The notes under the pieces: generated by a model | The model's database searches: none | The model's input: the letters and a program-made list of their open reading frames with translations, nothing else | Told to the model about the DNA's origin: nothing | Shown here: one piece after another, positions 3,545 to 38,100 of the stretch | Position numbering within the stretch: position 1 is the stretch's first letter | Layout: every line of letters begins with the position of its first letter | Program-made: the position numbers and the translations under genes | Source of the DNA: a virus | Lineage: Duplodnaviria > Caudoviricetes | Reading direction: 5' to 3' (one strand) | IMG/VR virus record: IMGVR_UViG_3300032295_002786 | Coordinates: 1-41,967 of that record | Length of the DNA stretch: 41,967 bases

Positions 3545-3681
3545 TATTTTTTGATGTCTTCGCGACTGGCAGCAGGTTGTGTCACAGCCGGGGGCGGATC
3601 TAGCCGTTCAATTACCAATTTTTGCGCACCCCACCATCCAATGGCGGAGAAAAAACCCCACATAATGATTTCAGCGATCAT
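3544..3681 (-). CDS. Small membrane peptide (45 aa)
   Basis: MIAEIIMWGFFSAIGWWGAQKL...; TAAATA upstream; stop overlaps next start. Confidence 0.5.
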   Translation of the reverse strand: MIAEIIMWGFFSAIGWWGAQKLVIERLDPPPAVTQPAASREDIKK

Positions 3682-3711
3682 AGCAGCCTTTCTATACCCA
3701 GTATTTAAGCG

Positions 3712-3736
3712 AAAATGGCACCCGAAGGTGCCATTT
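3712..3736 (-). terminator. Terminator hairpin downstream of tmRNA coding piece
   Basis: Minus strand AAATGGCACC-TTCG-GGTGCCATTTT, UUCG tetraloop and U tract. Confidence 0.8.
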
Positions 3737-4035
3737 AGACTATTGGGTAACAAGGTGGTCAACCCCGGAGATTACGCTGCTAGAGCGTATACCTCATCAT
3801 TAGCTGCGTTTGCAGTTATGGTTTTTGCTTGATTTACGGTCATCGCCTACCGTGTTGTCCATATCCTTACTCGTCACCCTGTCGAAACCATGTCTGGCCC
3901 ATCAAAAGCACATTCTGTCGTCGTTTTTGCTACGCAGGTAACGACCAAGACCTCAAAGAATATGCTTTTGGTGGACCAGGCGGGAGTCGAACCCGCGTCC
4001 AGAACACCTTTCATTCTACTTCATACAACAATAAC
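3737..4035 (-). ncRNA. ssrA: Circularly permuted two-piece tmRNA (outer ends approximate)
   Basis: Acceptor piece ..GCGGG-TTCGACT-CCCGC-CTGGTCC-A-CCA ends at 3969 and lies upstream of the 5' piece GGGCCAGACATGGTTTCGAC starting at 3900; acceptor stem GGGCCAG/CTGGTCC with G3.U70; tag ORF 3813-3772 = ANAANDEVYALAA*. Confidence 0.93.
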
Positions 4036-4119
4036 TTACAGAGTCAGTATCACTACAGTAGCAATAAACACTGCTACCAGACCCCAATATATTGCTTCGC
4101 CAATTTTATAACTCATCAT
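4036..4119 (-). CDS. Possible 27-aa membrane peptide
   Basis: MMSYKIGEAIYWGLVAVFIATVVILTL*, GAGGG RBS; below ORF-track length cutoff. Confidence 0.35.
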   Translation of the reverse strand: MMSYKIGEAIYWGLVAVFIATVVILTL

Positions 4120-5271: not shown

Positions 5272-5346
5272 TGGTCCGGCGTGAGGGAATCGAACCCCCA
5301 TTCACAGTTTAGAAGACTGTTGTCCTATCCGTTGAACGAACGCCAG
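5272..5346 (-). tRNA. tRNA-Arg(TCT)
   Basis: Acceptor CTGGCGT/ACGCCGG, anticodon arm ACAGT-CTTCTAA-ACTGT, T arm GGGGG-TTCGATT-CCCTC, encoded CCA. Confidence 0.93.
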
Positions 5347-6031: not shown

Positions 6032-6108
6032 TGGTGGGCCGGGAGAGATTCGAACTCTCTATCCCCCGATTATGAGTCGGACGCATATACCTAAAATGCT
6101 TCCGGCCC
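6032..6108 (-). tRNA. tRNA with CAT anticodon, likely tRNA-Ile2 (lysidine) rather than Met
   Basis: Acceptor GGGCCGG/CCGGCCC, anticodon arm TCCGA-CTCATAA-TCGGG, T arm GAGAG-TTCGAAT-CTCTC, CCA; C4-G69 and C5-G68 are TilS determinants; no initiator features. Confidence 0.9.
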
Positions 6109-16980: not shown

Positions 16981-17826
16981 TTATCTCCCCCATCCATTGC
17001 CCCAGAGATCCACGTGCAATCTGGGACTGTACCAATATCCTCGACGGAGTGCTTCGTTAGCAACATTTAACCTGTTGCTGTCGTACACAGACACTGTGCC
17101 GCCCACAGGCATCACAAACACCGGACCGGCAAATTCACGTGAACGATATTCAGCCACAGCACGATCTACTTCGTCAAAATCTTCGGGCTTGTCAACCACA
17201 AACTTGAGATAGGTCACGCCATGATTTTCATATTCAAACACAGTGTCCGGACGAATGGCATCCTCCCACTTCTCGCCACTCACACTCAGCTTGGGACTCA
17301 CACTGAATGTGATTTCACCGTGCCAGTCGTACAGATAATTTCTAAATTCTGGTGTGAGCCCTTGTGTGCCATTGGTCTCAAAAGTCACATGTCTAAGACC
17401 ACGTTCGTGTAGATAGCTCAACAGCTCAGGATAAGCACGTTGCCAACCCAGCAAAGGTTCTCCGCCGGTGATCACAAGATGTACCGGCATCTGATTGGGC
17501 TGTAACCATGTGTTGTTGGGCAACAATTGTTCCATGGTATCAGACAGCTCTTCCACTGTGTAGCTGCGACTGAGATGTCGGAAAGCCGGATGCCATGATG
17601 CATAGCTGTCACAGCCTGTGTTCACCAACGGCAGCTCCTCAAAAGTTTTGTACAGTTCTACTTGTTTGGCAACCTCGTCGGCCTCAACACTGCGTTCTCC
17701 AGGAGCGCAACCAAAACCACTGCAGGTAAAGTTGCAACCAAACGTGCGCAGAAATATGCTGGGAACTCCAACATATCGTCCTTCGCCCTGGGCACTGTAA
17801 AATATTTCACTGACTTTGATTTTCAT
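16981..17826 (-). CDS. queE: 7-carboxy-7-deazaguanine synthase (radical SAM)
   Basis: EIFYSAQGEG, FLRTFGCNFTC..GCDS, VITGGEP, FETNGT, SVSPK, SPRLH..WG. Confidence 0.92.
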   Translation of the reverse strand: MKIKVSEIFYSAQGEGRYVGVPSIFLRTFGCNFTCSGFGCAPGERSVEADEVAKQVELYKTFEELPLVNTGCDSYASWHPAFRHLSRSYTVEELSDTMEQLLPNNTWLQPNQMPVHLVITGGEPLLGWQRAYPELLSYLHERGLRHVTFETNGTQGLTPEFRNYLYDWHGEITFSVSPKLSVSGEKWEDAIRPDTVFEYENHGVTYLKFVVDKPEDFDEVDRAVAEYRSREFAGPVFVMPVGGTVSVYDSNRLNVANEALRRGYWYSPRLHVDLWGNGWGR

Positions 17827-21710: not shown

Positions 21711-21999
21711 GTTGAACATCCTTGTGTGTTTGAAATATATTAGACCATTGTCTGAGCTTTTGACGTTTCAGTTCTTTGGCGGTGTCCAAGGCATCAGGAT
21801 CAATTACACCTTGGTCTACCAAGATATCTATCATGGCCAACACATCACCAAGTTCGCGCTCCAACATTGTTCTGTGTGGAATACCGTGACTGTAGTGAAC
21901 AGAATTTAGTCCAAATCTACGGCACTTGCTGACTTCAACAATGACCTCAGCACACTCTTCTTGCAAGATATCCAGTGCTTCTTGAATTTGTGCATTCAT
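21703..21999 (-). CDS. MazG-like NTP pyrophosphohydrolase
   Basis: ILQEECAEV..ERELGDVLA. Confidence 0.75.
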   Translation of the reverse strand: MNAQIQEALDILQEECAEVIVEVSKCRRFGLNSVHYSHGIPHRTMLERELGDVLAMIDILVDQGVIDPDALDTAKELKRQKLRQWSNIFQTHKDVQHD

Positions 22000-22511
22000 G
22001 CAAATAGATCCTCATTCCACTCTCTATGACCTTCTCTAAAAGCCATGTTGCTTTGTGTTTCGCGCACTTCCACACGATAGCACCAGAGTCTTTCTGCTTC
22101 TCCTGGTCCCCACATGTCGGGAATGTACACACCATTCACAAACTTGTACAGTTGGTCAGCCAGTCCTTCGCAGCCCAGGCGTGGTAGTACCACAATCTTG
22201 GCCATTTTCCGTTCTTGCAGCAGTTTGAATGTTTCCAGTTCCGGGTCATCCTGTGCCACGATCAAGGTATGATCAAACTGATCTTCAAGGATCCGCTTGA
22301 GATCTTTGAGGCCGCCGTAGTCAGCTGCCCAATTACGAACATCCAGATTGTCTGTGCCAAAATAAAACTTCATGCTAAAACTATAGCCATGAATTAGGTT
22401 GCAGTGACTATCAGCTCGCCACTGACGGTATGCACATGGAAATGCGTCGTGATATTCTTTGGTACTCACATACCGGTAGGTTATGGGTGGGTTGATTTGA
22501 TCAAGATACAT
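21996..22511 (-). CDS. queD: 6-carboxy-5,6,7,8-tetrahydropterin synthase
   Basis: HCNLIHGY (CxxxHG), DYGGLK, FDHT, GCEGLA, EVRET. Confidence 0.88.
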   Translation of the reverse strand: MYLDQINPPITYRYVSTKEYHDAFPCAYRQWRADSHCNLIHGYSFSMKFYFGTDNLDVRNWAADYGGLKDLKRILEDQFDHTLIVAQDDPELETFKLLQERKMAKIVVLPRLGCEGLADQLYKFVNGVYIPDMWGPGEAERLWCYRVEVRETQSNMAFREGHREWNEDLFA

Positions 22512-23509: not shown

Positions 23510-24259
23510 TTATCTAGGCGCAAACTCCTGTTGTAGCTTGATATTGTCCATGAACTCTTTCTTGACACTGGCATCAGTACTGAACACACCTTTTAACACA
23601 GTGGTCTGTGTCAATGAACTGTGTGCCATGATACCGCGATTCTCGCAGCAGCCATGTGTGGCCTGAATATACACACCCACGTCGTGACTGTCAGTGGCGC
23701 GAATTATTTCTCGGGCAATGTCATTACACAGTTCTTCCTGTAGCGTACCTCGCCGCGCACACCACTGTGCGATTCGTGTGTATTTGGACAGACCGATAAG
23801 TTTATTGGCCGCAATGATACCGATATAGGCGACACCATTAACAGGCTGATGATGATGACTACACATGCTACGAAGCTCGCTGCGTACAACAAGCATACCT
23901 TCATATCTTTCTTGCGAGTGGTTGGGAAAAGCAGTTGCATCAGGTCTTGATTCATATCTACCTGCCATTATCTCATTGAAATACATCTTGGCCAGCCTAC
24001 GAGCTGTGCCTGCACTGTTGGGATCTGTTTCACGATCAATCAACAACCTATCCAGTACCAATTCAAAAGCTTCTGTTGCCTCATTGATTAGATGTTCTTT
24101 GTCTGTTTCGTGCAAGTAGTCACTGATGTTGTCACCTGCCCAAAAACGTTTGTTGTCGCGTTGCATTCTGGCACGGATCGCGTCGGCCAAATATGTTTTC
24201 TTTGGTGCTGAAGTACCAGTGTCATCGTCGCTGCTCTGGTACATTTTTTCGTAAACCAT
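23510..24259 (-). CDS. folE: GTP cyclohydrolase I
   Basis: TARRLAKMY, SMCSHH, GLSKYTR, LQEEL, HGCCENRG. Confidence 0.96.
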   Translation of the reverse strand: MVYEKMYQSSDDDTGTSAPKKTYLADAIRARMQRDNKRFWAGDNISDYLHETDKEHLINEATEAFELVLDRLLIDRETDPNSAGTARRLAKMYFNEIMAGRYESRPDATAFPNHSQERYEGMLVVRSELRSMCSHHHQPVNGVAYIGIIAANKLIGLSKYTRIAQWCARRGTLQEELCNDIAREIIRATDSHDVGVYIQATHGCCENRGIMAHSSLTQTTVLKGVFSTDASVKKEFMDNIKLQQEFAPR

Positions 24260-25917: not shown

Positions 25918-26863
25918 ACCACTGCCAGGCATGTGCGATGATGTCATCAAGACTGTACTGACGCCATGTCACCAGTTTGTCAAATTTTTCAGCACTGGCT
26001 GTGAGCATGGCTGGATCGCCTTGACGCCTGACACCGGCTTGAACTTTGAGTTTGCGTCCAGTCACACGTTCTGCGGTTAGAATGATTTCAGCATTGCTGA
26101 TACCAGTGTGTGATCCTAGATTGTAAACACCTGCAGGCACTGTGTCACGATCCAGAGCCATGACATGTGCCTGTGCAATGTCGTCTACATGAACATAGTC
26201 ACGCACACAGGTACCGTCCGGTGTATCATAGTCATTGCCGTTGAGCACGAACTCACGATCATCGCGCAGGCTTTCTAGCACACGAGCAATGATGTGTGTG
26301 GCTCCGGATTCTTGACCATGTCTGCCTTGCGGATCTGCGCCACAGGCATTGAAGTATCTAAATGCCACATAGTCAATGTTGTATGCTTGACGGTAACTGG
26401 CCAACATGAGTTCAATCATGCGTTTGCTTTCACCATAGGGCGAAATTGGTTCACATGGATCAACCTCGTGGCAGGGATTCATGATGGGTTCACCATAAAC
26501 TGCTGCTGAGCTAGAAAAAATCACCCTACAGTGTGGCATTGCTTGGCGAACAATACCCAGCAGTTTTTTGGTCTTGACAAAGTTGTTTTCGTAATACTCT
26601 TCAGGGTTGGCCATACTGGGACCAACCAAGCTTGTACCAGCACAGTGTATGATGGCCTGGGGTTGAAACTTTACCAAGGCTATGAAACTGCGATCTGTGG
26701 CAAAATCGCACTGTTCAAAATGATATTTGCCGTTGGCAACGTCCACACGATTGTTGTGAGGCTGCCTGTGATCAATGCCCAGCACCGTGTGTCCGGCTTC
26801 CAGCAGCCGAATCACAATCTGCCCGCCAATGTAACCGGCTGCACCTGTAACAACTACATTCAT
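25910..26863 (-). CDS. galE: UDP-glucose 4-epimerase
   Basis: TGAAGYIG, FSSSAAVYG, PYGESK, RYFNACGA, TPDGTCVRDYVHV, RRQGDP. Confidence 0.95.
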   Translation of the reverse strand: MNVVVTGAAGYIGGQIVIRLLEAGHTVLGIDHRQPHNNRVDVANGKYHFEQCDFATDRSFIALVKFQPQAIIHCAGTSLVGPSMANPEEYYENNFVKTKKLLGIVRQAMPHCRVIFSSSAAVYGEPIMNPCHEVDPCEPISPYGESKRMIELMLASYRQAYNIDYVAFRYFNACGADPQGRHGQESGATHIIARVLESLRDDREFVLNGNDYDTPDGTCVRDYVHVDDIAQAHVMALDRDTVPAGVYNLGSHTGISNAEIILTAERVTGRKLKVQAGVRRQGDPAMLTASAEKFDKLVTWRQYSLDDIIAHAWQWYV

Positions 26864-28062
26864 GATTGTACCTTTACCACCTGATACTTCTCGTGAGCAA
26901 CATGATCACGATATCTATTACCCGCGCGATTCCATTGCTCTCCCTGCCCCAGTATAATATCAACGACACGATCAACAGTAGCATTATTCCAGTCACTTAT
27001 CAACCCCATGTTATGATGTGGTGCCTGCAAGAGATTCAACATTTTGTGATAGGCATCGTCGATGCTCCAAGGCACATACAGGCGATTGGGATCGTTTGCA
27101 AATGTTTCTGGGAACGAACGATAGGCCGGATACAACACATTGCTGCCCAGGGTGTCGGCTTCACTCACAGTGTTAGACACCCAGTCTTGCAAGGCACAGT
27201 TAAACAACACACGAGTATTGTTGAGATGCTGGTAATACTCGTTCTTGGTAATGTTATCAAAAATCTTGAGTTCGCCACGTGCTTCAAGATCTCTAGCACG
27301 ACGAATGTATTCAGGATTGTTGCTGCGAAGTTCACCACCCGAGTACACACAGAACTCAATAGGCAGATCCGTGAGCTCACGAGTCATCTCAATTAGATCC
27401 ATGAAGAAGCCTGGCTGCTTTTCTTGATCAAATCTTGCAGCAAAGCCCACACGCAAGGGACGATCAGCAAAGGGTCGGATGTTCTCTGCACCGCCAATGC
27501 GCTCCAGCACTTCTGTCTTGCCAAATGCCAGGCCACTGATGTTGTAGATAGGAGCAGTCCAACCTGCGATTCTCATGTGCGCAACCATTTCTTCGTTTGT
27601 GGCCAATACCCCAGTCACAAAGTGGTTCACCATCTTTTCATAAGTTGACATCCACGACGCCATGCCCCAGACATGTACAAAGTCGTCAGGATCAATTGCC
27701 TGTGCAAGACAACGAACAAAAATGCGGGGACGCTGGCTAGCAGGTACCTGATCCAGAATATAGGGCAGGCTTTCGATGCCGGGTTGAAACATGTCTTCAA
27801 AGTACACCACATCGTCATGTCTAACTTCTCCTTGTTGCATCAGTCGTACTAGGTTCATCATTTGGCTCATGGCAAAATAGCTGCGACCATGAGCATCCAA
27901 GACCTGACCCACTGAAATCTTTTGACTGTTGTCTAGATTCAAACCAGGAACATAAACCACGTCAAGTTTACGCCGATCAAACACACGACGATTCCATTCT
28001 GTGAGTTGAAGAGTATAACGGGCTTCGTAGCTTTCGAGCCCCATGTAATAGAGTTTTCGCAT
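26860..28062 (-). CDS. GT-B glycosyltransferase (family 4-like)
   Basis: FAARFDQEKQP, QDWVSNTVSEA..LYP..SFPE in the C-terminal nucleotide-sugar-binding domain. Confidence 0.75.
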   Translation of the reverse strand: MRKLYYMGLESYEARYTLQLTEWNRRVFDRRKLDVVYVPGLNLDNSQKISVGQVLDAHGRSYFAMSQMMNLVRLMQQGEVRHDDVVYFEDMFQPGIESLPYILDQVPASQRPRIFVRCLAQAIDPDDFVHVWGMASWMSTYEKMVNHFVTGVLATNEEMVAHMRIAGWTAPIYNISGLAFGKTEVLERIGGAENIRPFADRPLRVGFAARFDQEKQPGFFMDLIEMTRELTDLPIEFCVYSGGELRSNNPEYIRRARDLEARGELKIFDNITKNEYYQHLNNTRVLFNCALQDWVSNTVSEADTLGSNVLYPAYRSFPETFANDPNRLYVPWSIDDAYHKMLNLLQAPHHNMGLISDWNNATVDRVVDIILGQGEQWNRAGNRYRDHVAHEKYQVVKVQS

Positions 28063-28064
28063 TG

Positions 28065-28802
28065 TTATGAAAAGTAGTTTAAAATGTGTTCGGCCATTTT
28101 GTCATGAGCAGTCAAGCTGGGCCACAACCCAGGTCGATCAAACAGACTAGTAAAAGCACCACTGTTAATGAACTGCGCTCTTTTCCAAGGGTCTGTCAAC
28201 AGCAACAGTTGTTCTACCATGTCATTTCTGCCCAATCTCTGCAATGATAATTCAAGATCACGAAAAGAATCTCGCACACTGCCCAACATCACAGCAGTGG
28301 GCACATGATCTGGAACCATCATTTGTATCCAACTGGTGCAGATATTAGCAAGATTATTATAACGCGATAAAGCTGCTTGGTCAATGTCAGTTGCCCCACC
28401 TGCCACATATATTGTGATACCAGCAGCAGCGGCAAGTTTGTCAAGTTTTGCATACCAGCTGTCAACAATTCTTGAAAACAGATCTTCAAGATTGGCACTG
28501 GTTGTAATCACCTCGTCATGTCTGAAATCAAATGCATGAGCCTGCCAGGTATTGGCAGTGTTGCCTTGAAACACAATCACCGTGCCCGCTAACTCTAGTT
28601 CTGATGCCAACATTAGTTCGGACCAAATACCATTTCTCAAATTTTCAGTGTGTGAATCCGGGTGATGTACAGTCACATCATATTTGGCAGACAACAAGCG
28701 ACTCATACCAGGTTGATCAGGCACCACGGTGCCGTCGTGTCTACGCCAGGTGCCATATATCCAGCTGTCGCCAATTAGAGTTAATTTAGGTTTGGTTTCC
28801 AT
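28065..28802 (-). CDS. Divergent SGNH-like protein
   Basis: LIGDSW block I, VIVFQG, C-terminal WPS..AH..MA. Confidence 0.5.
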   Translation of the reverse strand: METKPKLTLIGDSWIYGTWRRHDGTVVPDQPGMSRLLSAKYDVTVHHPDSHTENLRNGIWSELMLASELELAGTVIVFQGNTANTWQAHAFDFRHDEVITTSANLEDLFSRIVDSWYAKLDKLAAAAGITIYVAGGATDIDQAALSRYNNLANICTSWIQMMVPDHVPTAVMLGSVRDSFRDLELSLQRLGRNDMVEQLLLLTDPWKRAQFINSGAFTSLFDRPGLWPSLTAHDKMAEHILNYFS

Positions 28803-28810
28803 GATATCAA

Positions 28811-29035
28811 TCAATTACGGTGCCCGCTTAACCTGCGTGAATCTTCACGCCACATGTTTTTGGCAGGCTTGCCTTGTTGATATTTACTGTATTGTTGCCA
28901 CGCATAACTCTTGAAATTGTATAGATCAGATTCATTGTAACGATATCCGTATTCTACACAAAAATCCAAAAATTTTTCTAGATCACGAAAAACTTCGGCC
29001 ACACGTGGATTGGGTTTGATTACAGGCTTGCCCAT
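28811..29035 (-). CDS. Hypothetical phage protein
   Basis: FRDLEKFLDFC..YGY.YNE.DLY; GAGG RBS. Confidence 0.7.
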   Translation of the reverse strand: MGKPVIKPNPRVAEVFRDLEKFLDFCVEYGYRYNESDLYNFKSYAWQQYSKYQQGKPAKNMWREDSRRLSGHRN

Positions 29036-29064: not shown

Positions 29065-29814
29065 TTATATAAAATCGTTGGTTTTTTCAAGCCACCGGTT
29101 GACCAAATCGCCAATGGCCTGTGCGAACAATTCGTTGCCTCTAATGTTGGGATGTACATTGCTCCACAATCTACGACGTTCTAATTTACTCCATAACGTA
29201 AAGGCCTGATCAATGCAGAAAATCACATCTTTGCTGACAGGCACTTCCAGATCAAGAGTGTACTCAGGACCTTGTCGGCCTTCAATACGGTTGTGTAACC
29301 AGCGATGTGCTACCTCAGCTGCCCAACCAAAAAATCTTGGAGTTGAGATTCTGCCTTGTTCTAACAGAAAATTTTGCCAACTAGCATGAATCACTGTGAT
29401 ATGATCTGGCCATGCATAGTCAACGATGTCTGTGTGAGCACCAATCAAGGCCACGGGAATATTTAGGTCACAAAGATGCTGATAAAATTTTATTTCAACC
29501 GCTTTGATAACTGCCACAGGATCGCTCTGGCACATGAAATATCTTGCAAAATCCTCAATGGGTGTGTCTAGCAAAATTTCTGAATCTTGCAGTGAATTAG
29601 AAGTAATAAACACAGCTCTCGCTGGTCCCTGATGCTCTTGGAGAAACTGTTTGGCCATGCTGAGTTGATTCATGTTGGAATCGCCACATCTAGACAGATC
29701 AACATAGTTTTGTAATTTTAGTTCTTTGGCAAGATTGGTCTTGACAGCGTCATTGCCGAGCGGAGTTTCAAAGCTCTGCACCGCCCAACTTGGCCCAAGA
29801 TACAGAGTGTGCAT
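29065..29814 (-). CDS. SGNH-like protein
   Basis: LYLGPSWA, GDSN, VHPNIRGNELFA. Confidence 0.55.
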   Translation of the reverse strand: MHTLYLGPSWAVQSFETPLGNDAVKTNLAKELKLQNYVDLSRCGDSNMNQLSMAKQFLQEHQGPARAVFITSNSLQDSEILLDTPIEDFARYFMCQSDPVAVIKAVEIKFYQHLCDLNIPVALIGAHTDIVDYAWPDHITVIHASWQNFLLEQGRISTPRFFGWAAEVAHRWLHNRIEGRQGPEYTLDLEVPVSKDVIFCIDQAFTLWSKLERRRLWSNVHPNIRGNELFAQAIGDLVNRWLEKTNDFI

Positions 29815-30275
29815 TAAATTTTCACTGTGAGGTTGACACGTTGTACAGGGTATTCAATCACACATCCGTTCTCACCATCTTCGCTGACTTCAATCACAAT
29901 GGTTCGATCAGGATAGCGTTGTGCTATGGCATTGTAAAGATCATCTGCAATCATCTCGCATGATTTGTAGTCCAACTGCAGACAATCTTGTTCCCTTGAA
30001 TACAGTGCTTCCAGCCATCGCTTGAATTGGATGAACTCGATATCACGGTCATTGTGCCATACGTCGATTGACACCCGGAAGTGAAAGATATGGCGATGAG
30101 GATAGCCAAGAAACGATACATCATATTGATCTCCCGTTGCCAGTTGTGGATCGTTGAGTGCTGCAGGATATTTATGGATGCCTTCACGACGGAAGGTGAC
30201 CCAGATTCTTCTTGTGGCAGCATCCAATCTGCGCTGTTGTGTTTCGGCCAAGGCCTGTTGATGTTGATCTATCAT
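29814..30275 (-). CDS. QueD paralog (T-fold), DpdL-like
   Basis: EGIH, FLGYPHRHIFHF (LxxxHRHxF in place of CxxxHGH), DRDIEF, SCE, VSEDGENG. Confidence 0.7.
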   Translation of the reverse strand: MIDQHQQALAETQQRRLDAATRRIWVTFRREGIHKYPAALNDPQLATGDQYDVSFLGYPHRHIFHFRVSIDVWHNDRDIEFIQFKRWLEALYSREQDCLQLDYKSCEMIADDLYNAIAQRYPDRTIVIEVSEDGENGCVIEYPVQRVNLTVKI

Positions 30276-30793
30276 AGTGTTTGGTCCTTGCTGTATTGGT
30301 TCCAGTGAGTAAATGCACTGGGTCTAGTGAGATTGTGTATTCGGTGACACCAAACTCCAGGATTGGTTGCTGCAAAATCTTTGTCATCAAGCTTTATTGT
30401 AGCATTATATCCCAGTTGTTGTACATAGGGCAGTTTGACCGAAATCATGGGAATAAACATGATGTACTCGGTGAGTACAGTTTCCAAAAGATCTTCTACC
30501 ACAGCAACATCAATGTCAAGAGTACACCACACGCCCTGTTCCAAAAATGGCCGTATCATGTCCTCCCATTGATCCCAATCCTTGCTGTCAGCACGACCGT
30601 TTGGAAAACTGTGATTGGCACCGAAGTAGATGTGATGCACAGCACCGTTGGCTTTGGCATCTTCCATGGCCTTGACAATGTCATTGTGATTCTGTAGTCC
30701 TACCACGAACAGAGTCCTCAGTCCATGTGCGGGGGTGTGTTCAATTTCCTCACCAACAAAAAATTTGGTATCTTCGTGTCCTTGTCTGTTCAC
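30272..30793 (-). CDS. Hypothetical protein coupled to the DpdA-like gene
   Basis: G.E.E.TP..G..TLFV, HIYFGANHSF, KLDD.DF..TNPGVW; 4-nt overlaps with both neighbours. Confidence 0.75.
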   Translation of the reverse strand: MNRQGHEDTKFFVGEEIEHTPAHGLRTLFVVGLQNHNDIVKAMEDAKANGAVHHIYFGANHSFPNGRADSKDWDQWEDMIRPFLEQGVWCTLDIDVAVVEDLLETVLTEYIMFIPMISVKLPYVQQLGYNATIKLDDKDFAATNPGVWCHRIHNLTRPSAFTHWNQYSKDQTL

Positions 30794-32334
30794 AGTGTGG
30801 CCTCCAATTCGTCAAGTTTATCAATGTCTAAGTCGTCGCTGTTGTCATCAACAGGCGTGTCTTCAGTGTCAAACAAGGATGTGAACATGGGTTTTGCACT
30901 GAACATGCGTTTGCCAGTGTTGCCTCGAGTGCCAATGATTAGATCACAGGTGCTGCGATAGTATTCTACTGCGGCAAGACTGCGCTCGCGATCTTGATGA
31001 TGAAAAATTTCTTCCACAATGTTGCGGAAGTCGTAGTCGCTGCTGTTTTGTCCTGCCAACATTTCAGGTTTGCTGCCTTGATCATACAGTTCATTGGCTG
31101 TTTGTACCGCATTGATATGATGCCACACATTGTGGCCCATCATGAGTGCATAGCTGAAACTGTCCCAAGAGGTCTTGCCTTCCTTGCCCAGCTTGTTGAG
31201 ATCACCTGGACCATACACACAGACGTCGCTGATCTTGAGTCGCTGTGATATGGGCGAATCATCAAATACCGAATGAATACCATCCTGCAACACAGCATCA
31301 CGGAACGAACGCTGATCTGTGGCATAGCGTTTGTTGTCTGCTGTGGGTGCCATTCTATAGGTCCACTTGCCACGATTGGGGAATATGCTTTGATAGTACA
31401 ACTGACCATTGGCAGTGGCCAGGAATGGTGATGCACAGTCAAACGATATTGTGAAGTTGGGATTGTGATAGCGGCGCACTGCACGTTGGATGTCAGTGAG
31501 CAAGCAAGCCCATTCCAGTTTGGATGTACCCAGGAAGTGCATCCAATCATGTACGCCAGGCTGCAACAAACCATCGTGTATCAGGGTCACAATACGCTTG
31601 AGCACAAGATGCACGTCACACATGTTCTGACCACCCATGCCCCAGCCGTCAAAGTGTCTGCCAGGGTAACGTGCAGGATCGCTGTAGTGTTTCATGGTTT
31701 CGTACCATGAATCAGCTTCGCCGTGATCTGCACCCTGCAACACGTTGAGATATCTAGCACCGCCTTCGGCCACACCGCGTCGGTTGGCAATGAAATAGTC
31801 GTTGTTGTAGATGGTGGCGTCAACCGCGTCTTGATAGTTGTAGATGCCGGTCTTGGCACTTGAGCCAGGCCATTTGCTGGTCCATGTGGGAATATCCAGT
31901 GTGAGTCCATATGTGGCCATGCCATCCTGCCACTTCAACACAGCCTCACGTTTTTTCTGTGCCTTGGCGCAACCTGAGTTGGCCTTCCAGTCACCTTCCC
32001 ATACACCCTTGGCAATCTGGAATCCACCTGAGTCGCACAGCAGTGTGCTGCCGGGATCGCGACTGCGCAGCATGTCCTCTTTGGGATTGTGTTTGGTAAG
32101 ATCTAGATCGGCATGTCCAGCTGAGTAAAGGCTCCAACGATAAGGGAATAGTGCCTTGCCAGGATTGAGAAAATTCATCTGTTCCATGTCAGGCATGGCT
32201 TGGGGCATGCGAGCAGGATCAACATAATTTTCAAATCTTTGCCGGCCGATATAGGTACTGTAGAAACTGCTGACAGCCGGAAGAAAAATTGCATAATCTT
32301 GCTGTCTAGCAGTTAGGTCATGTTGATCAGTCAT
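30790..32334 (-). CDS. dpdA: TGT-fold 7-deazaguanine transglycosylase, DpdA-like
   Basis: LCDSGGFQ, LDIP, NVLQG, GWGMGG, HFLG, SFDCAS; no CxCxxC zinc site seen; clustered with folE/queD/queE. Confidence 0.75.
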   Translation of the reverse strand: MTDQHDLTARQQDYAIFLPAVSSFYSTYIGRQRFENYVDPARMPQAMPDMEQMNFLNPGKALFPYRWSLYSAGHADLDLTKHNPKEDMLRSRDPGSTLLCDSGGFQIAKGVWEGDWKANSGCAKAQKKREAVLKWQDGMATYGLTLDIPTWTSKWPGSSAKTGIYNYQDAVDATIYNNDYFIANRRGVAEGGARYLNVLQGADHGEADSWYETMKHYSDPARYPGRHFDGWGMGGQNMCDVHLVLKRIVTLIHDGLLQPGVHDWMHFLGTSKLEWACLLTDIQRAVRRYHNPNFTISFDCASPFLATANGQLYYQSIFPNRGKWTYRMAPTADNKRYATDQRSFRDAVLQDGIHSVFDDSPISQRLKISDVCVYGPGDLNKLGKEGKTSWDSFSYALMMGHNVWHHINAVQTANELYDQGSKPEMLAGQNSSDYDFRNIVEEIFHHQDRERSLAAVEYYRSTCDLIIGTRGNTGKRMFSAKPMFTSLFDTEDTPVDDNSDDLDIDKLDELEATL

Positions 32335-32905: not shown

Positions 32906-33746
32906 CAGTAATACATATTCTGTTGTAGCCGTTTCTGTTGTATTCACGATGCAGATCTGCATCACCCTGTGCCAGTGTAAAAGTGTTGGTTGGTTCAATA
33001 CCTAGCGTGTTGCATACTTCAACCTGGCGATAAAGATATTTAGACAGCAGCCAGTCTATGGAAAATTCTTTCATGAGCCGCATGCCCACACTCACAGCCA
33101 CACGATTGTAAATTTTCAAGTCGCTGTTGACTTGCAGCATGTCATCAACATGTGTGCGAGTCAGTCTCAAGCCCAGGCGCAGTTGAGTTGCTAGAGGCTT
33201 GCTGAGACTGAAGGCCACTTCTTTCACACACTGTCGTGATAAATCCAGTGTAACGCTGTGACTGATGGGCCAATAACTGAGATCCAAGAATACCGGCACA
33301 TCCATGCTGTCGCAGCAATCAAGCATGGCTTCAAAGTCTGTGTGCATGTTGCCTGAACCGGAAAATGGCGCACTGATCATGACAGCATCGTTGTGTTCGA
33401 TGGGCCCGTGTTCTAGAAAACTCCATTCAAATTCAGCTGACTGACTGGCAATTTTTGCTGCGACAAATTCAGCCTGACTGAATCTCAGTCTTCGTTTGGC
33501 ACCGTGTCGATGCACAAAGCTGATGATGGCATCAACACTGCCGGCCGAATAAGCACGATGGGGGAACTGATCTAGACCTTGCAGTTTGTTCAAGGGATGA
33601 TCTCGCATCCAGGAGATCACAGCATCGGTATAGTTTTCAGTTTTCCACGAGTTGTCAGCAACATCAGATTCTGTTGTGTTGGCAAGAAGTTCAAACATTC
33701 TTTTGCGAACAGCAGAATCTTCTAGTGGTTTGTGACCGGGTGTCAT
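32886..33746 (-). CDS. Compact fold-type I PLP-dependent enzyme
   Basis: ISAPF..G, VFLDLSY, FSLSKP..RLG (Schiff-base Lys), C-terminal NRICI. Confidence 0.7.
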   Translation of the reverse strand: MTPGHKPLEDSAVRKRMFELLANTTESDVADNSWKTENYTDAVISWMRDHPLNKLQGLDQFPHRAYSAGSVDAIISFVHRHGAKRRLRFSQAEFVAAKIASQSAEFEWSFLEHGPIEHNDAVMISAPFSGSGNMHTDFEAMLDCCDSMDVPVFLDLSYWPISHSVTLDLSRQCVKEVAFSLSKPLATQLRLGLRLTRTHVDDMLQVNSDLKIYNRVAVSVGMRLMKEFSIDWLLSKYLYRQVEVCNTLGIEPTNTFTLAQGDADLHREYNRNGYNRICITDEITDF

Positions 33747-34468
33747 TATTTGGTTTGTGCTGGCAAGATATAGTTGTAAACAGCCAAGCCAGAATCCACA
33801 GTGATCTGCGTGGCACCGCCATCACTGATTCTCACAGTCTTGTCTCCAGTGAGATCCATGATAGCAGCAAACTTCTTGGCAGGCCATGACCAAGCACGTT
33901 TGAGCTCGCCTGACACTCCGGGATGAAACACAAAGTTGCCAGCATGAGTGCTGTGATCACCAAAGAAAAACTTTAGGTCTCCATTCTCAGTACGGGCTTG
34001 GTAGTTGGGCTCCTCACTGTTGGCAGCCATCTGCCATTTCAGTCGCTGAATAGCAGCATTGGTGGGCTGAAATTCAACGTCCCAGGTCACACCGCGGAAC
34101 TTGGCATACTTCACTTTTTCATTGACCACACCTTCGCTCATGAATCTGTAGTTGTTGCGGAAGTCGCCTGCTGCATTTTCAAACGCAATGCCATCGGGTT
34201 CTCCTGTGCTGCGTTGTGTCAAGGATATCTTGGCCCCTTCGCCATATTCCTGCAATGACAACAGTGTTTTGAGCTTGGCCAGATTAGGCATGCCAAATGT
34301 ACCAATGAACTCCGGTAGCGGATTCTTGAATTCGGCTTCTACAACCACGCTTTGGTCTTCAGGCAAACCTTTGATTTGCGTGGATTTGTCGTCGCCAATG
34401 ATCTTGATGATGTCAATGAAACCAAGATCATAAGTGTGTTCAACTAAGTCTTTTAGATAGTCTTTCAT
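33746..34468 (-). CDS. Probable DNA polymerase sliding clamp (gp45-like)
   Basis: 240 aa with two-domain beta/alpha pattern, FG..NL..L..LL, C-terminal YNYILPA; near the polymerase; weak similarity only. Confidence 0.55.
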   Translation of the reverse strand: MKDYLKDLVEHTYDLGFIDIIKIIGDDKSTQIKGLPEDQSVVVEAEFKNPLPEFIGTFGMPNLAKLKTLLSLQEYGEGAKISLTQRSTGEPDGIAFENAAGDFRNNYRFMSEGVVNEKVKYAKFRGVTWDVEFQPTNAAIQRLKWQMAANSEEPNYQARTENGDLKFFFGDHSTHAGNFVFHPGVSGELKRAWSWPAKKFAAIMDLTGDKTVRISDGGATQITVDSGLAVYNYILPAQTK

Positions 34469-34486: not shown

Positions 34487-34515
34487 ATTATATAGACCGC
34501 AACGTCAAATTACAA
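34487..34515 (-). promoter_or_regulatory. sigma70-type promoter
   Basis: TTGTAA-17 bp-TATAAT followed by AAGGAG RBS. Confidence 0.6.
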
Positions 34516-35443
34516 CAATTTTGGCCAAGGTCTGTGCGCCGCGAATGCTGGTTAAATCACCTGGTCGGCGCAGTTCACACCATACCATGTCGCCGCCTTC
34601 TCGATTGATGCTGACAACTTCAAAACCAGCTGTTCGAACAGCAGGCTCCAGCAATCTCCAGGGTTGATACATCATGAATCGATTTTCAAATAGACCCATG
34701 TTTTGTGCAATGTCGCAATCATTGAAAGTCATGATTAGGCTGCCGCCAGGGCGCAATTTTTCAAACAGTTCTAAAATATACTTTGTAATCAAAGGCAAGG
34801 GTTTATAGTTGAAAAAATTATAGGCCAATACAAATCCAAATTGATTGTTGGGCAATTTTTCAAGTGCTGGTTGATTTTCTGGATCTTCAATCACATATGG
34901 TCGCAATCTACGTTGATACAGTTCACTGTACTGATTCATGAACGGTGTGAAGATCTCTTGGTAGTTGTCAACTAGATACAAGGGATCAAGCGTGACCACG
35001 GGCTGCATCCACTCATCTGCAGTGGGTCTAAAAATCATGCCAGGCCACTGCCAGGTGCTTAGAAGTTTGATGCGAGTTGAAATATTCTCCAGGACCTGAT
35101 CTGTGACTGACACTGATCGCCCCATGATTGATGCAGCAGTATCTATTCCTTTTTCTTGTTGGTATCGATCTTGATCTTCCTGTATGCAGCGGGCATCATT
35201 GGCTGCTATCACAGTCATGAGATTGCGATGTATGGTTTTGATTATTTCATCAAACTGATGCAGGTTGAGATGAATTTCTTGACACTTGGCATCTAACTGT
35301 TGCGCCAAGTCTTGAGATTGCACCGGACTGTGAATCACTGTGTATACCGTGGCTGCTAGGTCTCGCACTGTCTGACTGGCATTGGCAGTTACATCTATCT
35401 GTTCCAGTTGATTGCAAAAGGCAACAATATCTTGAAGAGTCAT
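34505..35443 (-). CDS. Class I SAM-dependent methyltransferase-like protein with coiled-coil N-terminus
   Basis: LPNNQFGFVLAYNFFNY..KLRPGG; degenerate motif I. Confidence 0.55.
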   Translation of the reverse strand: MTLQDIVAFCNQLEQIDVTANASQTVRDLAATVYTVIHSPVQSQDLAQQLDAKCQEIHLNLHQFDEIIKTIHRNLMTVIAANDARCIQEDQDRYQQEKGIDTAASIMGRSVSVTDQVLENISTRIKLLSTWQWPGMIFRPTADEWMQPVVTLDPLYLVDNYQEIFTPFMNQYSELYQRRLRPYVIEDPENQPALEKLPNNQFGFVLAYNFFNYKPLPLITKYILELFEKLRPGGSLIMTFNDCDIAQNMGLFENRFMMYQPWRLLEPAVRTAGFEVVSINREGGDMVWCELRRPGDLTSIRGAQTLAKIVVI

Positions 35444-38100
35444 GAAAAGTCAAACAGTGATGTGAATGTGTTCTGTGTGTTGGTGGCCGCAGCCAGATCC
35501 CAATCCAACACGCCCAAGAGATTGTCTAATTTTTGATCAACCACGGTGTTCTCCATTTCTTGATCATCAAACGGCAATTCACGGAACCAGGCAGGCAAGT
35601 GCAGTTCATCTGTGGGATAGGCTATGCTGGTCCAGCCCAGGGGATTGTTTTTTAGTTTGCACACAATCACTTTCATGCCATCCACAATCTGCATGCTGTA
35701 GTTGTCACTGTTCATGCGCCGCAGTGTGTTCCAATTGAGAGCTGCACGTACATGTCCGGGCATGTTGGCTTTGCCTTCGCGTTCTTCTTTCTTAGCATAG
35801 GCTGTTAGATTGTTCACACGTTTGGGAGATCCTTTTTCCCAACCAGGCCTTTCTGTGAATTCATATTTGAAGTCTCTAATTTTCTCCACAATGGCCTCGC
35901 GTGATTCTCCATACAAAAGCTGCATCAACACATCAAGCAAAAAGTCCTGGATCACTTTGGGAGTGTCACTGCGCTTGAGATCAAGTCCGGTGGCTTTGAC
36001 CTTGCCATGACTGCCGGCCACGTCTTTGCGTGTGCCTTCCTGATCAATGATGTTGACTGCGTAGCGTTTCTTGGTTATGAACAAACCACGGTCAGCTACC
36101 ACTTCACGACCGGCCTTGATCAGGCTGCCCATGTCTCGCGGACAGTGAAAAGCCTGTTCCATGAAAGCCGGGAATGAATCGTTGACCTGTTCGGCCAGGT
36201 TGTCATAGAGCTGAATACAAAACTCTTTGCTCCAGGTCATGCGACCTTGTTCTACTTCTTTCTTGAGCACTGGCCAGGCCGAGAAGTAACAGCTATCTGT
36301 GTCACCATAGATCACTGCATCGCCCATGTGATCATAAACACCGGTGAGACATTCATTGATGTGTGCATCCATGTGTCGTGCAATGGCACGACCTGTCAGT
36401 GTGGTGCTTTGACCAATGCGTTTGTCAAAGAATCTGCAACCAGGATTGAGAATAGCGCCATACAAGCTGTTGAGGTTAATCTTCTTGACCAACTGACGCT
36501 TGTCCCAGAATGCTTCCGCTTTTTTGTCGGTGGCTTCACGCTTCTTGGCCTGCATTTCTTTGCGTTCGGCATACCAGCGTTCCAGCAAGCCGGGTATCAC
36601 ACCTTTTTTCTCATAGGTAAAGATTGTACCATTGGCACTGAGCATCCAGGGCTGGTTGCTGTCAAACATGATCTTCCATACTTCGGCAGCACTGTGTACA
36701 GTTTCTGTTCCATCCTGCCAGTCAATGGTGATCTCAGTGCCACGTTCTTGATTCATCACTGCTGAGTATTCAAGACTGCCAAACAGGCCTTCCCAGGCCG
36801 CAGCAAAACTCATGCCGCTGGCCATGCGCTCCTTGATGTGACGACTGGTCATGTGTGGACGCAGTTGCCCCACAATGGTTTCTGGACCCATGTTCAAGGC
36901 ACGAATTGCACTGGGATACAGACTGTTGATGTCAACACTGCCGATCCACTCGTGTACACCTTTCTTGGGATAGGCCACATAAGCGCCAGCAGCCTGTGTG
37001 TCGTCATCAGTGAGACGTTGCTTGCGATTGGGCACCACCATGCCACGTTCGTGTGCTTCGTTGATGATGGCCTGCTCGGTCACAGCCACAGCACCCATGG
37101 TTGTCTGTAGCAGCACAGTGTTGGCATGTGCCAGTTCGTTGGCCAGATCAAGAAATCGCAGTTTCTTGTCCATCTGTGCAATACCATTGACGTCTTGTCG
37201 GTTGTACTCCAAGAACTTTTTGAAGTCATTGTTGTAGAGTTGGTCCAATGTGCCTTCGTACTTGGTCTTGCCTTCCAATCCTTCGTATTCTAGAATGGCA
37301 TCAAGACTGTAGCTGTGGCGTTCTTCATAGGTGTACTTGCGATACAGTTGCATGTAATCCATGTGTACACGCCCCACCAGGTCATAGGTCTGATGTTCGG
37401 CACCAAATCTTTCAAATGTTCGCTGTTTGGGAAACTGTCCCCAGAGACAGAACTTGCGAGTGTCGTCACGACTCAGCACACGAGTCACTCGGTTCACGGT
37501 GTAGGGAATATCATAGCCTTCTGAGTTCCAACCTGTGAGCACATCAGCATCGTCAATGAGATCAAGAAACGCCTTGAGCATTTCTGCCTCACTGTCAAAA
37601 ATCATGGTGTTGTCAAACTGCTCGGCAATTTCCTGTGCTGTGGCCTGACTCATGTGACGGGGCGGTACTGCAAAGGTCACCAGTTGATCCAGCCAGTCCA
37701 AGTACACTGATATTGCAGTGATGGGGTTGAACGGATCTTCCACAGGTGAAAAGCCGCGTTCTTGATCAAAGGCAACCTCAATGTCAAAGATTGCTGTGTT
37801 CAGTTCTGGAGCGTCTAGATCTTTGTAGTTTTCTTCTAGGCAACGAAAAATGGGATTGAAGTCGCTTTCATACAGTTGTTTACTGCTGTGCATGCGAACT
37901 TCTTTGCGAAACTCTTTGTTGTTGCGTGTGCTGAATCTTGACACTGGTGTGTCATAGATGCTGCGAAACTTGCCTCGAGGATCGTCGTAGTAAAAAACAT
38001 AGTTGGCTGGATATTCCTGATATCTGCGTTGGCCTTTGATGCGTTCTACAACATGAATGCGATCGTGTTCACGATCAAACAGTGCGTCAATGTAACTCAT
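35440..38100 (-). CDS. Family B DNA polymerase (gp43-like) with 3'-5' exonuclease
   Basis: FDIE, GWNSEGYD, YNRQD, DINSLYP, KINLNSLYG, YGDTDS, KKRY. Confidence 0.98.
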   Translation of the reverse strand: MSYIDALFDREHDRIHVVERIKGQRRYQEYPANYVFYYDDPRGKFRSIYDTPVSRFSTRNNKEFRKEVRMHSSKQLYESDFNPIFRCLEENYKDLDAPELNTAIFDIEVAFDQERGFSPVEDPFNPITAISVYLDWLDQLVTFAVPPRHMSQATAQEIAEQFDNTMIFDSEAEMLKAFLDLIDDADVLTGWNSEGYDIPYTVNRVTRVLSRDDTRKFCLWGQFPKQRTFERFGAEHQTYDLVGRVHMDYMQLYRKYTYEERHSYSLDAILEYEGLEGKTKYEGTLDQLYNNDFKKFLEYNRQDVNGIAQMDKKLRFLDLANELAHANTVLLQTTMGAVAVTEQAIINEAHERGMVVPNRKQRLTDDDTQAAGAYVAYPKKGVHEWIGSVDINSLYPSAIRALNMGPETIVGQLRPHMTSRHIKERMASGMSFAAAWEGLFGSLEYSAVMNQERGTEITIDWQDGTETVHSAAEVWKIMFDSNQPWMLSANGTIFTYEKKGVIPGLLERWYAERKEMQAKKREATDKKAEAFWDKRQLVKKINLNSLYGAILNPGCRFFDKRIGQSTTLTGRAIARHMDAHINECLTGVYDHMGDAVIYGDTDSCYFSAWPVLKKEVEQGRMTWSKEFCIQLYDNLAEQVNDSFPAFMEQAFHCPRDMGSLIKAGREVVADRGLFITKKRYAVNIIDQEGTRKDVAGSHGKVKATGLDLKRSDTPKVIQDFLLDVLMQLLYGESREAIVEKIRDFKYEFTERPGWEKGSPKRVNNLTAYAKKEEREGKANMPGHVRAALNWNTLRRMNSDNYSMQIVDGMKVIVCKLKNNPLGWTSIAYPTDELHLPAWFRELPFDDQEMENTVVDQKLDNLLGVLDWDLAAATNTQNTFTSLFDFS

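Follow-up and report, generated by a model that had tools for sequence, protein, structure and literature searches.

Background

Among described phages, the nearest counterpart of the system presented here is found in Pseudomonas phage PA5oct, whose protein QCG76197.1 is tabulated as a DpdA3 transglycosylase accompanied by FolE, QueD, QueE and DpdL, without QueC (Cui, Hutinet et al. 2023, Supplementary Data S1, PMC10516641); in that supplement the protein has a single mention, in a summary table, and does not appear in the PSI-BLAST list for the DpdA3 of phage phiST. Our subject is its homolog in the IMG/VR virus record IMGVR_UViG_3300032295_002786, a 514-residue protein encoded at 30790-32334 on the minus strand. 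The whole 41,967-base record was analysed and is called the window below; with a completeness estimate of 12%, it is a piece of a jumbo-phage genome some 350 kb long. PA5oct and the window share the order polymerase-clamp-DpdA-DpdL, the same set of companion genes and a tail peptide, FNSLF in PA5oct. The question touched by such a locus is how an enzyme that exchanges one base at a time can reach so many guanines of a large phage genome ahead of the host nucleases. Here, the protein is likely both a DNA transglycosylase and a client of its phage's own sliding clamp, on which it would dock by an FxxLF tail resembling that of the polymerase.

Other relatives share parts of this design. The DpdA2 proteins of Vibrio phages nt-1 and VH7D, Acidovorax phage ACP17 and Xanthomonas phage BUDD fall in a similar size class, have no histidine at the QG motif and mostly dispense with the CxCxxC zinc motif, and several DpdA2s carry [ST]LxxLF tails that match their own polymerases; the window protein differs in its greater length, in its acidic tail and conserved terminal helix, and in occupying a separate, well-supported branch. 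DpdA3 proper (Cellulophaga phage phiST CGPG_00065 and its counterparts in Campylobacter phages) likewise has DpdL as a companion and lacks both QueC and CxCxxC, but spans only ~260-290 residues, has no clamp tail and gives a weak profile match. Bacterial tRNA-guanine transglycosylases (TGTs), such as E. coli Tgt and Z. mobilis TGT, have the same fold and catalytic residues, yet share ~14% identity with the window protein, which lacks CxCxxC and lies among replication genes.

Clients of sliding clamps provide the other term of comparison. Gp45-binding motifs are known in gp43, ligase, gp33 and gp55 (available text of PMC6212786 and PMC9690074), and clients of T4 and RB69 gp45 and of PCNA insert a short hydrophobic peptide, borne on a flexible segment, into a pocket under the interdomain loop, an arrangement predicted here as well. 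T4 alpha-glucosyltransferase co-purifies with gp45 (PMC13216743, available text) and DNMT1 is a DNA-modifying enzyme that binds PCNA (PMC9690074, likewise), so that clamp-bound DNA-modifying enzymes are already known and the surprise of another is moderate. What sets the window protein apart is its chemistry, that of a base-exchange enzyme breaking the glycosidic bond, and its motif, which has F in place of L at the start and lacks the glutamine of the PCNA-interacting peptide (PIP); its binding is a prediction.

A transglycosylase fold with its catalytic residues in place

The open reading frame (ORF) begins with an ATG at 32334, where it overlaps the stop codon of the preceding ORF. Its closest homolog among the matches listed is also 514 residues long and covers 100% of the query. 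Library scans gave no Pfam (including PF01702), PHROG or NCBIfam (including tgt) match, and PDB sequence searches with the protein or its profile returned nothing; identification therefore came by fold. An AlphaFold2 model built from 120 diverse rows (predicted local distance difference test, pLDDT, 93.5) comprises a (beta/alpha)8 barrel of the TGT type at residues ~12-444, a low-confidence tail at 475-499 and a terminal helix at 504-513. The best 50 Foldseek matches listed from the PDB were all Z. mobilis TGT (best E 5.7e-8), and the five leading VIA-align matches were archaeal TGT, bacterial TGT, QTRT2, bDpdA (7ui4) and Cap10, with Z from 18.3 to 14.2 and the next barrel at 11.7.

The motifs are DSGGFQ at residues 101-106 (32017-32034), LD at 146-147, QG at 200-201, HFLG at 266-269 and FDC at 298-300 (31435-31443). 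In the hhalign alignment D101, D147, Q200, L268 and D299 fall on D89, D143, Q187, M244 and D264 of E. coli TGT, and by this homology D101 would be the general acid/base and D299 the nucleophile, the roles of the equivalent Asp95 and Asp256 in bDpdA (PMC10164549, available text). All three active-site aspartates required of the TGT/DpdA superfamily, for acid/base catalysis, base recognition and nucleophilic attack, are present; D101, H266 and D299 do not vary across the 120 diverse homologs, 119 of which also keep D147. Residue 200 is Q in 105 of these homologs, H in 10 and S in 5. The DpdA1/bDpdA histidine, which was used in the definition of DpdA2 (PMC6884629), is missing from the QG position of the window protein, as that definition asks.

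The CxCxxC motif, present in E. coli TGT, occurs in none of 121 close and none of 120 diverse homologs. We rejected the zinc-less state as a novelty, since most phage DpdAs examined share it: the motif is missing from 9g DpdA1, from seven of eight DpdA2 and from all five DpdA3 sequences. A different metal site may lie at H401 and C372, conserved in 109 and 78 of the 120 diverse homologs respectively. The original prediction, made from the DNA letters alone, had described a divergent TGT/DpdA that keeps DSGG, LD, QG, H.LG and FD and lacks the zinc site; the motifs are read in the sequence and align with E. coli TGT, the best solved matches of the model uphold the identity, and CxCxxC is indeed absent, as is ordinary among phage DpdAs. 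The product of 30790-32334 is very probably a DNA transglycosylase.

A tail that resembles the end of the polymerase

MFTSLF, the predicted clamp-binding peptide, occupies residues 483-488 (30871-30888, minus strand) and is followed by 26 mostly acidic residues, so that it does not form the very end of the protein. On the same strand, the 886-residue family B DNA polymerase (35440-38100) terminates in TFTSLFDFS (35443-35469). The resemblance is a property of the family. When the final 45 residues are scanned for [FY]xxLF, 70 of 76 distinct transglycosylases and 71 of 73 polymerases have it, whereas the background is 1 in 687 other neighbour-family proteins and 5 in 975 further ORFs from these loci; the counts come from related rows and from a pattern picked after the sequences had been viewed. 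A second set, of 27-49% identity and scanned over the last 60 residues, contained the motif in 43 of 72 transglycosylases, 56 of 66 polymerases and 1 of 339 other neighbour proteins. Among its 29 transglycosylases without the motif, 19 adjoin a clamp gene and by eye mostly hold looser variants, three have a terminal xxLF but lie near no recognised clamp, and seven, which make up a rearranged subgroup, are motif-free. Within the tail, F484, L487 and F488 form a peak of conservation (93, 85 and 99% of 121 rows) between variable flanks, and the segment has a pLDDT of ~50 in the monomer model: a conserved, polymerase-like hydrophobic motif on a flexible segment, as in clamp clients. A scan for short relatives without the motif (tail-less forms of 420-460 residues) returned mostly clamp-linked jumbo-phage members.

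The form of the motif follows the lineage. The tails of polymerase and DpdA read NNTDLFDW and NNNDLFGW in Vibrio phage 2.275.O, HFDSLFGW and SFNSLFDV in the PA5oct type, SLDDLFE and TLDELFE in ACP17, SLESLFG and SLEELFG in BUDD, SLEDLFGW and SLDDLFG in Moby, and TLDDFFS and SLDSFFD in BUCT-ZZ01. An F-type tail is thus found in the window and PA5oct, NxDLFxW in 2.275.O, and [ST]LxxLF or [ST]LxxFF in ACP17, BUDD, Moby and BUCT-ZZ01, and the paired resemblance extends to T4-like DpdA2 phages; it is weak in pf16 and Phosso. Across 119 locus pairs, motif position 4 is F in just two polymerases and two transglycosylases, and these are each other's partners (shuffle p 0.00015), a result from tiny counts uncorrected for kinship, with 10 of 129 pairs dropped for want of a motif call (nine transglycosylases and one polymerase). 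Exact sharing of FTSLF with the polymerase was rejected as evidence, being mostly chance: three of 71 pairs are identical, with a shuffle mean of 0.9.

Several further tails deserve mention. In the 9g DpdA1 (locus L119, 3007-3960), which has the gene order polymerase-clamp-DpdA, the C-terminus LQDLFDE resembles a beta-clamp motif, and the VH7D DpdA2 (locus L094, 1492-2868) has an internal VDLSSFFD, in an apparent insertion absent in nt-1, that is similar to the polymerase end ITLESFFG. The window protein has a second conserved tail element, in which D503, L507, L510 and E511 are kept in 91, 98, 99 and 99% of the 121 close rows; residues 503-511 (30793-30830, minus strand) are modelled as a helix with pLDDT ~80, for which its own barrel, a dimer or a second site are candidate partners. 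An unconserved 249-residue protein at 28065-28814 (minus strand) with FTSLF at residue 221 was considered as a third clamp client and set aside, as the two homologs at locus L004 do not retain the motif.

The sliding clamp and predicted docking

The 240-residue product of 33746-34468 (minus strand) has no Pfam name, but its model (pLDDT 92.3) matches PCNA with E 2.6e-11 and TM ~0.7, and an Atlas search with it returned PCNA and gp45 look-alikes. The genome thus encodes a cognate clamp of the PCNA/gp45 fold, as a clamp client needs. Its PA5oct counterpart is QCG76195. The clamp gene is found upstream of the transglycosylase gene in 77 of 80 IMG/VR loci, the remaining three beginning at the transglycosylase gene itself; in the window, the two are separated by two extra genes.

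Co-folding the clamp trimer with transglycosylase residues 468-500 gave a score of 0.72 (best of three controls, 0.00), passing a mark that 116 of 157 solved complexes and just 2 of 215 mismatched pairs attained, with contact agreement between runs of at least 71% and a partner pLDDT of at least 62. M483, F484, L487 and F488 are predicted to touch clamp residues 38-42, 120-127, 217-219 and 234-240, which we take to be the PIP pocket, built from the centre loop, the interdomain connector and the C-terminus. Pocket columns are barely more conserved than the remainder of the clamp (0.76 versus 0.72). The pass may reflect memory of solved PCNA and gp45 peptide complexes, and the modelled result is a measure of likeness to clamp-peptide complexes, not of binding. 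Set beside the conservation of the motif, it leads us to consider it quite probable that the transglycosylase tail binds the phage clamp, and the polymerase tail likely docks in the same pocket.

The original prediction had proposed that the two similar tails meet the 33746-34468 protein as a clamp, and that the transglycosylase, so tethered, modifies DNA at the replication fork. Its reading of the tail, of the polymerase end and of the clamp has held up, and the co-folding check that it named came out in favour of the modelled tether. Action at the fork goes beyond the evidence, as clamps persist behind it. Retention of the motif in homologs, on which it had also staked the idea, came out in its favour for the family at large, though one subgroup and many distant relatives lack the motif.

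A distinct DpdA subfamily

The family is abundant, with at least 7979 clusters at 90% identity among 7999 candidates scored and 855 representatives at 50% identity. Of 50,697 phage records, 13 match it: 11 PA5oct-like Pseudomonas records, Vibrio 2.275.O and Sinorhizobium phage Phosso. Members also occur at 11 loci (L200-L210) in metagenome-assembled genomes from unrelated phyla, which are probably misbinned phage contigs.

PA5oct QCG76197 is a homolog of the window protein (36.7% identity over 80% of the query, E 2e-81) and scores 532 bits against the family profile. Profile comparison by hhalign gave a probability of 97.4 (E 1e-11) to seven DpdA2s and 77.0 (E 2e-5) to five DpdA3s; against single sequences the profile reached 83.6 for E. 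coli TGT and 0.7 for 9g DpdA1. By profile and by fold the nearest subfamily is DpdA2, represented by YP_008125322 of nt-1 (predicted-structure match to nt-1, E 2.5e-10), yet the family has its own branch and the reciprocal search fails, a DpdA2 hidden Markov model scoring a mean of 5.6 bits on the family and -1.4 on the window protein. A quick tree of 33 rows, for which the RHph DpdA3 was trimmed to residues 1-300, puts the family (18 rows, SH-aLRT 98), seven DpdA2s (100) and five DpdA3s (95) on separate branches, with the deep nodes open; the phylogenetic check named in the original prediction thereby sets the family apart from DpdA2 and DpdA3. The DpdA labels of pf16, Moby, BUCT-ZZ01, D479 and CPt10 were assigned in the present analysis. 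PA5oct was absent from the 14 records returned by tblastn with phiST DpdA3, and the tree, the profile probability of 77 and this search agree that the family does not share the clade or homology with CGPG_00065 that would make it a phiST-type DpdA3. We regard it as a DpdA subfamily of its own, as yet unnamed, that is closest to DpdA2 and would function as a DpdA.

Deazaguanine genes and the probable modified base

FolE, QueD, QueE and DpdL are all in the window, as for phage DpdAs that travel with 7-deazaguanine synthesis genes, and across 83 loci FolE was found in 44 and DpdL in 69. DpdL lies at 29814-30275 (minus strand) and is a QueD paralog with an LGYPHRHIF motif, homologous to phiST CGPG_00067 (E 7e-9) and 58% identical to its PA5oct counterpart; it is a proposed decarboxylase of 7-carboxy-7-deazaguanine (CDG). 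QueC, required for preQ0 and preQ1, was not found in eight of the ten relatives searched; these eight include PA5oct, Phosso and a contig that is 99% complete. Vibrio 2.275.O encodes both QueC and QueF, and the base therefore varies within the family. In the window phage, the inserted base is most likely 7-deazaguanine (DG) or CDG. The DNA of PA5oct is refractory to five restriction enzymes, and the pattern has been interpreted as modification of G (PMC12191111); the phage is credited with a deazaguanine synthesis and incorporation system (Iyer 2021, PMC7824862, available text). A literature search found no nucleoside analysis of any family member.

A 400-residue conserved protein at 26860-28062 (minus strand), glycosyltransferase-like by reading and without a library match, is present at 59 of the 83 loci. 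Its homologs adjoin DpdA or DpdL in PA5oct, ACP17, BUDD, BCSR5 and BUCT-ZZ01, which makes it a lead for a sugar-bearing deazaguanine.

Proposed clamp docking and its alternatives

The proposed scheme would begin with FolE, QueD and QueE making CDG, which DpdL may then decarboxylate (the genes are in the window; the chemistry is that of Cui 2023, where the DpdL step is unproven). By analogy with bDpdA and TGT, D299 would attack the sugar while D101 serves as acid/base, guanine would depart and the new base would enter. With M483, F484, L487 and F488 in the predicted clamp pocket, the docked enzyme would be kept on clamp-loaded, newly copied DNA, and the modified G would guard against host nucleases, as it presumably does in PA5oct and other DpdA phages.

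A number of observations pull the other way. Q200 is a residue of the tRNA-TGT type where DpdA1 and bDpdA have His, yet the VH7D DpdA2 also has QG. A rearranged subgroup (loci L137, L144, L147, L151, L152, L154 and L199) has no recognisable tail motif, while the six polymerases seen there retain theirs; even a looser pattern is found in the last 70 residues of just 32 of 105 full-length distant representatives (our count), and the terminal motif is absent from the nt-1, VH7D and BCSR5 DpdA2s and from all five DpdA3s examined. Middle motif positions show no covariation between paired proteins (p 0.235). According to the available text of PMC10516641, phiST is fully modified and the VH7D DpdA2 is active in E. 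coli without a phage clamp; with no tail on the phiST DpdA3, tethering is therefore not needed for DpdA chemistry. T4 alpha-glucosyltransferase binds gp45, but that binding was judged not to be the main determinant of its share of modification (PMC13216743, available text). Our literature search found no measured binding, activity or base composition for any family member.

The most serious alternative accepts that DpdA binds the clamp but has it act on clamp-loaded DNA once the fork has passed, or at a late stage of infection, the tether being no more than a modest aid. It shares all sequence evidence with the scheme above and differs in timing and weight only. Once loaded, T4 gp45 stays on the DNA, where late transcription factors use it (PMC9690074, available text), so clamp binding is no proof of action at the fork; the alpha-glucosyltransferase result and the motif-free subgroup also fit a modest tether. 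Against so small a role, three hydrophobic residues are conserved in sets of 60-90% and of 30-45% identity and match the polymerase by lineage, implying sustained selection. We allow this version a substantial minority of our belief. A structural role for FxxLF, contacting the protein's own barrel, a dimer or another partner, would make the polymerase likeness a coincidence and the co-fold a memory, of which the co-folding tool itself warns. Such motifs are short and amphipathic, and FTSLF also lies inside the unrelated 28065-28814 protein, whose homologs do not retain it. However, the low pLDDT of the segment indicates no confident self-docking in the monomer model, the motif is missing from 686 of 687 other neighbour proteins, and its form tracks the polymerase across lineages, all of which make a structural role unlikely.

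That the enzyme might be a phage TGT editing host or phage tRNA is suggested by the tRNA TGTs at the head of the solved-structure matches, by Q200 and by the tRNA genes that the phage carries. The first of these is uninformative because the PDB has few DNA-acting members, and the window's tRNAs, Arg-TCT and Met-CAT, are not queuosine targets. Lack of CxCxxC, the scarcity of QueC among relatives, a gene position fixed between clamp and DpdL and the G-modified behaviour of PA5oct DNA (PMC12191111) further render a tRNA substrate very unlikely. Fold matches to CBASS Cap10 (Z 14.2) and QTRT2 (Z 17.2) could also point to a non-catalytic or protein-directed reader, an idea that the invariant or near-invariant catalytic aspartates of 120 diverse homologs leave scarcely credible. 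A DNA transglycosylase docked by its tail is the reading that we carry forward.

Implications

A clamp-bound DpdA was not found in our literature search, with most subscription papers outside its reach, and the word 'clamp' has no occurrence in the main text of PMC10516641, PMC6884629 or PMC10164549. Replisome tethering may be a general, unreported design of phage DpdAs, with the jumbo-phage subfamily, many T4-like DpdA2s and 9g-type DpdA1s each having evolved clamp-matched tails, a generalisation that we lean slightly against. Were it true, base exchange would take place directly behind the polymerase, blurring the post-replicative label; it would explain why some phage DpdAs, such as ACP17 DpdA2 with DpdL, yielded no product in E. 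coli, and clamp-guided base exchange should be reconstitutable. More broadly, the cognate clamp and its loader may be the missing context of failed E. coli assays of phage DpdAs. Clamp docking offers a concrete mechanism for modifying a large genome, with PA5oct and Paride as cultured models, and names can now be given to two core genes that lack annotation in a very abundant group of jumbo phages, those of a separate DpdA subfamily and of its PCNA-fold clamp.

Gene neighbourhood

The genes follow one another on the minus strand. A DsbA-like gene and the polymerase are followed by an unnamed conserved gene beside the clamp (34505-35443; 66 of 83 loci), the clamp, two genes of unknown function, the transglycosylase, an unnamed conserved gene overlapping the transglycosylase stop (30272-30793; 76 of 83 loci) and DpdL. 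Past DpdL come three unknowns, the 26860-28062 gene, an epimerase, a DegT-like gene, FolE (GTP cyclohydrolase I, 23510-24259), QueD (21996-22511) and, later, a QueE-like radical SAM enzyme (16981-17826).

Beyond this cluster, the same strand carries a phosphate porin and a PstS-like phosphate-binding protein at 122-2614, auxiliary genes of phosphate uptake. It also encodes a permuted transfer-messenger RNA at 3681-4061 with the tag ANAANDEVYALAA, tRNA-Arg(TCT) at 5272-5346 and tRNA-Met(CAT) at 6032-6108.

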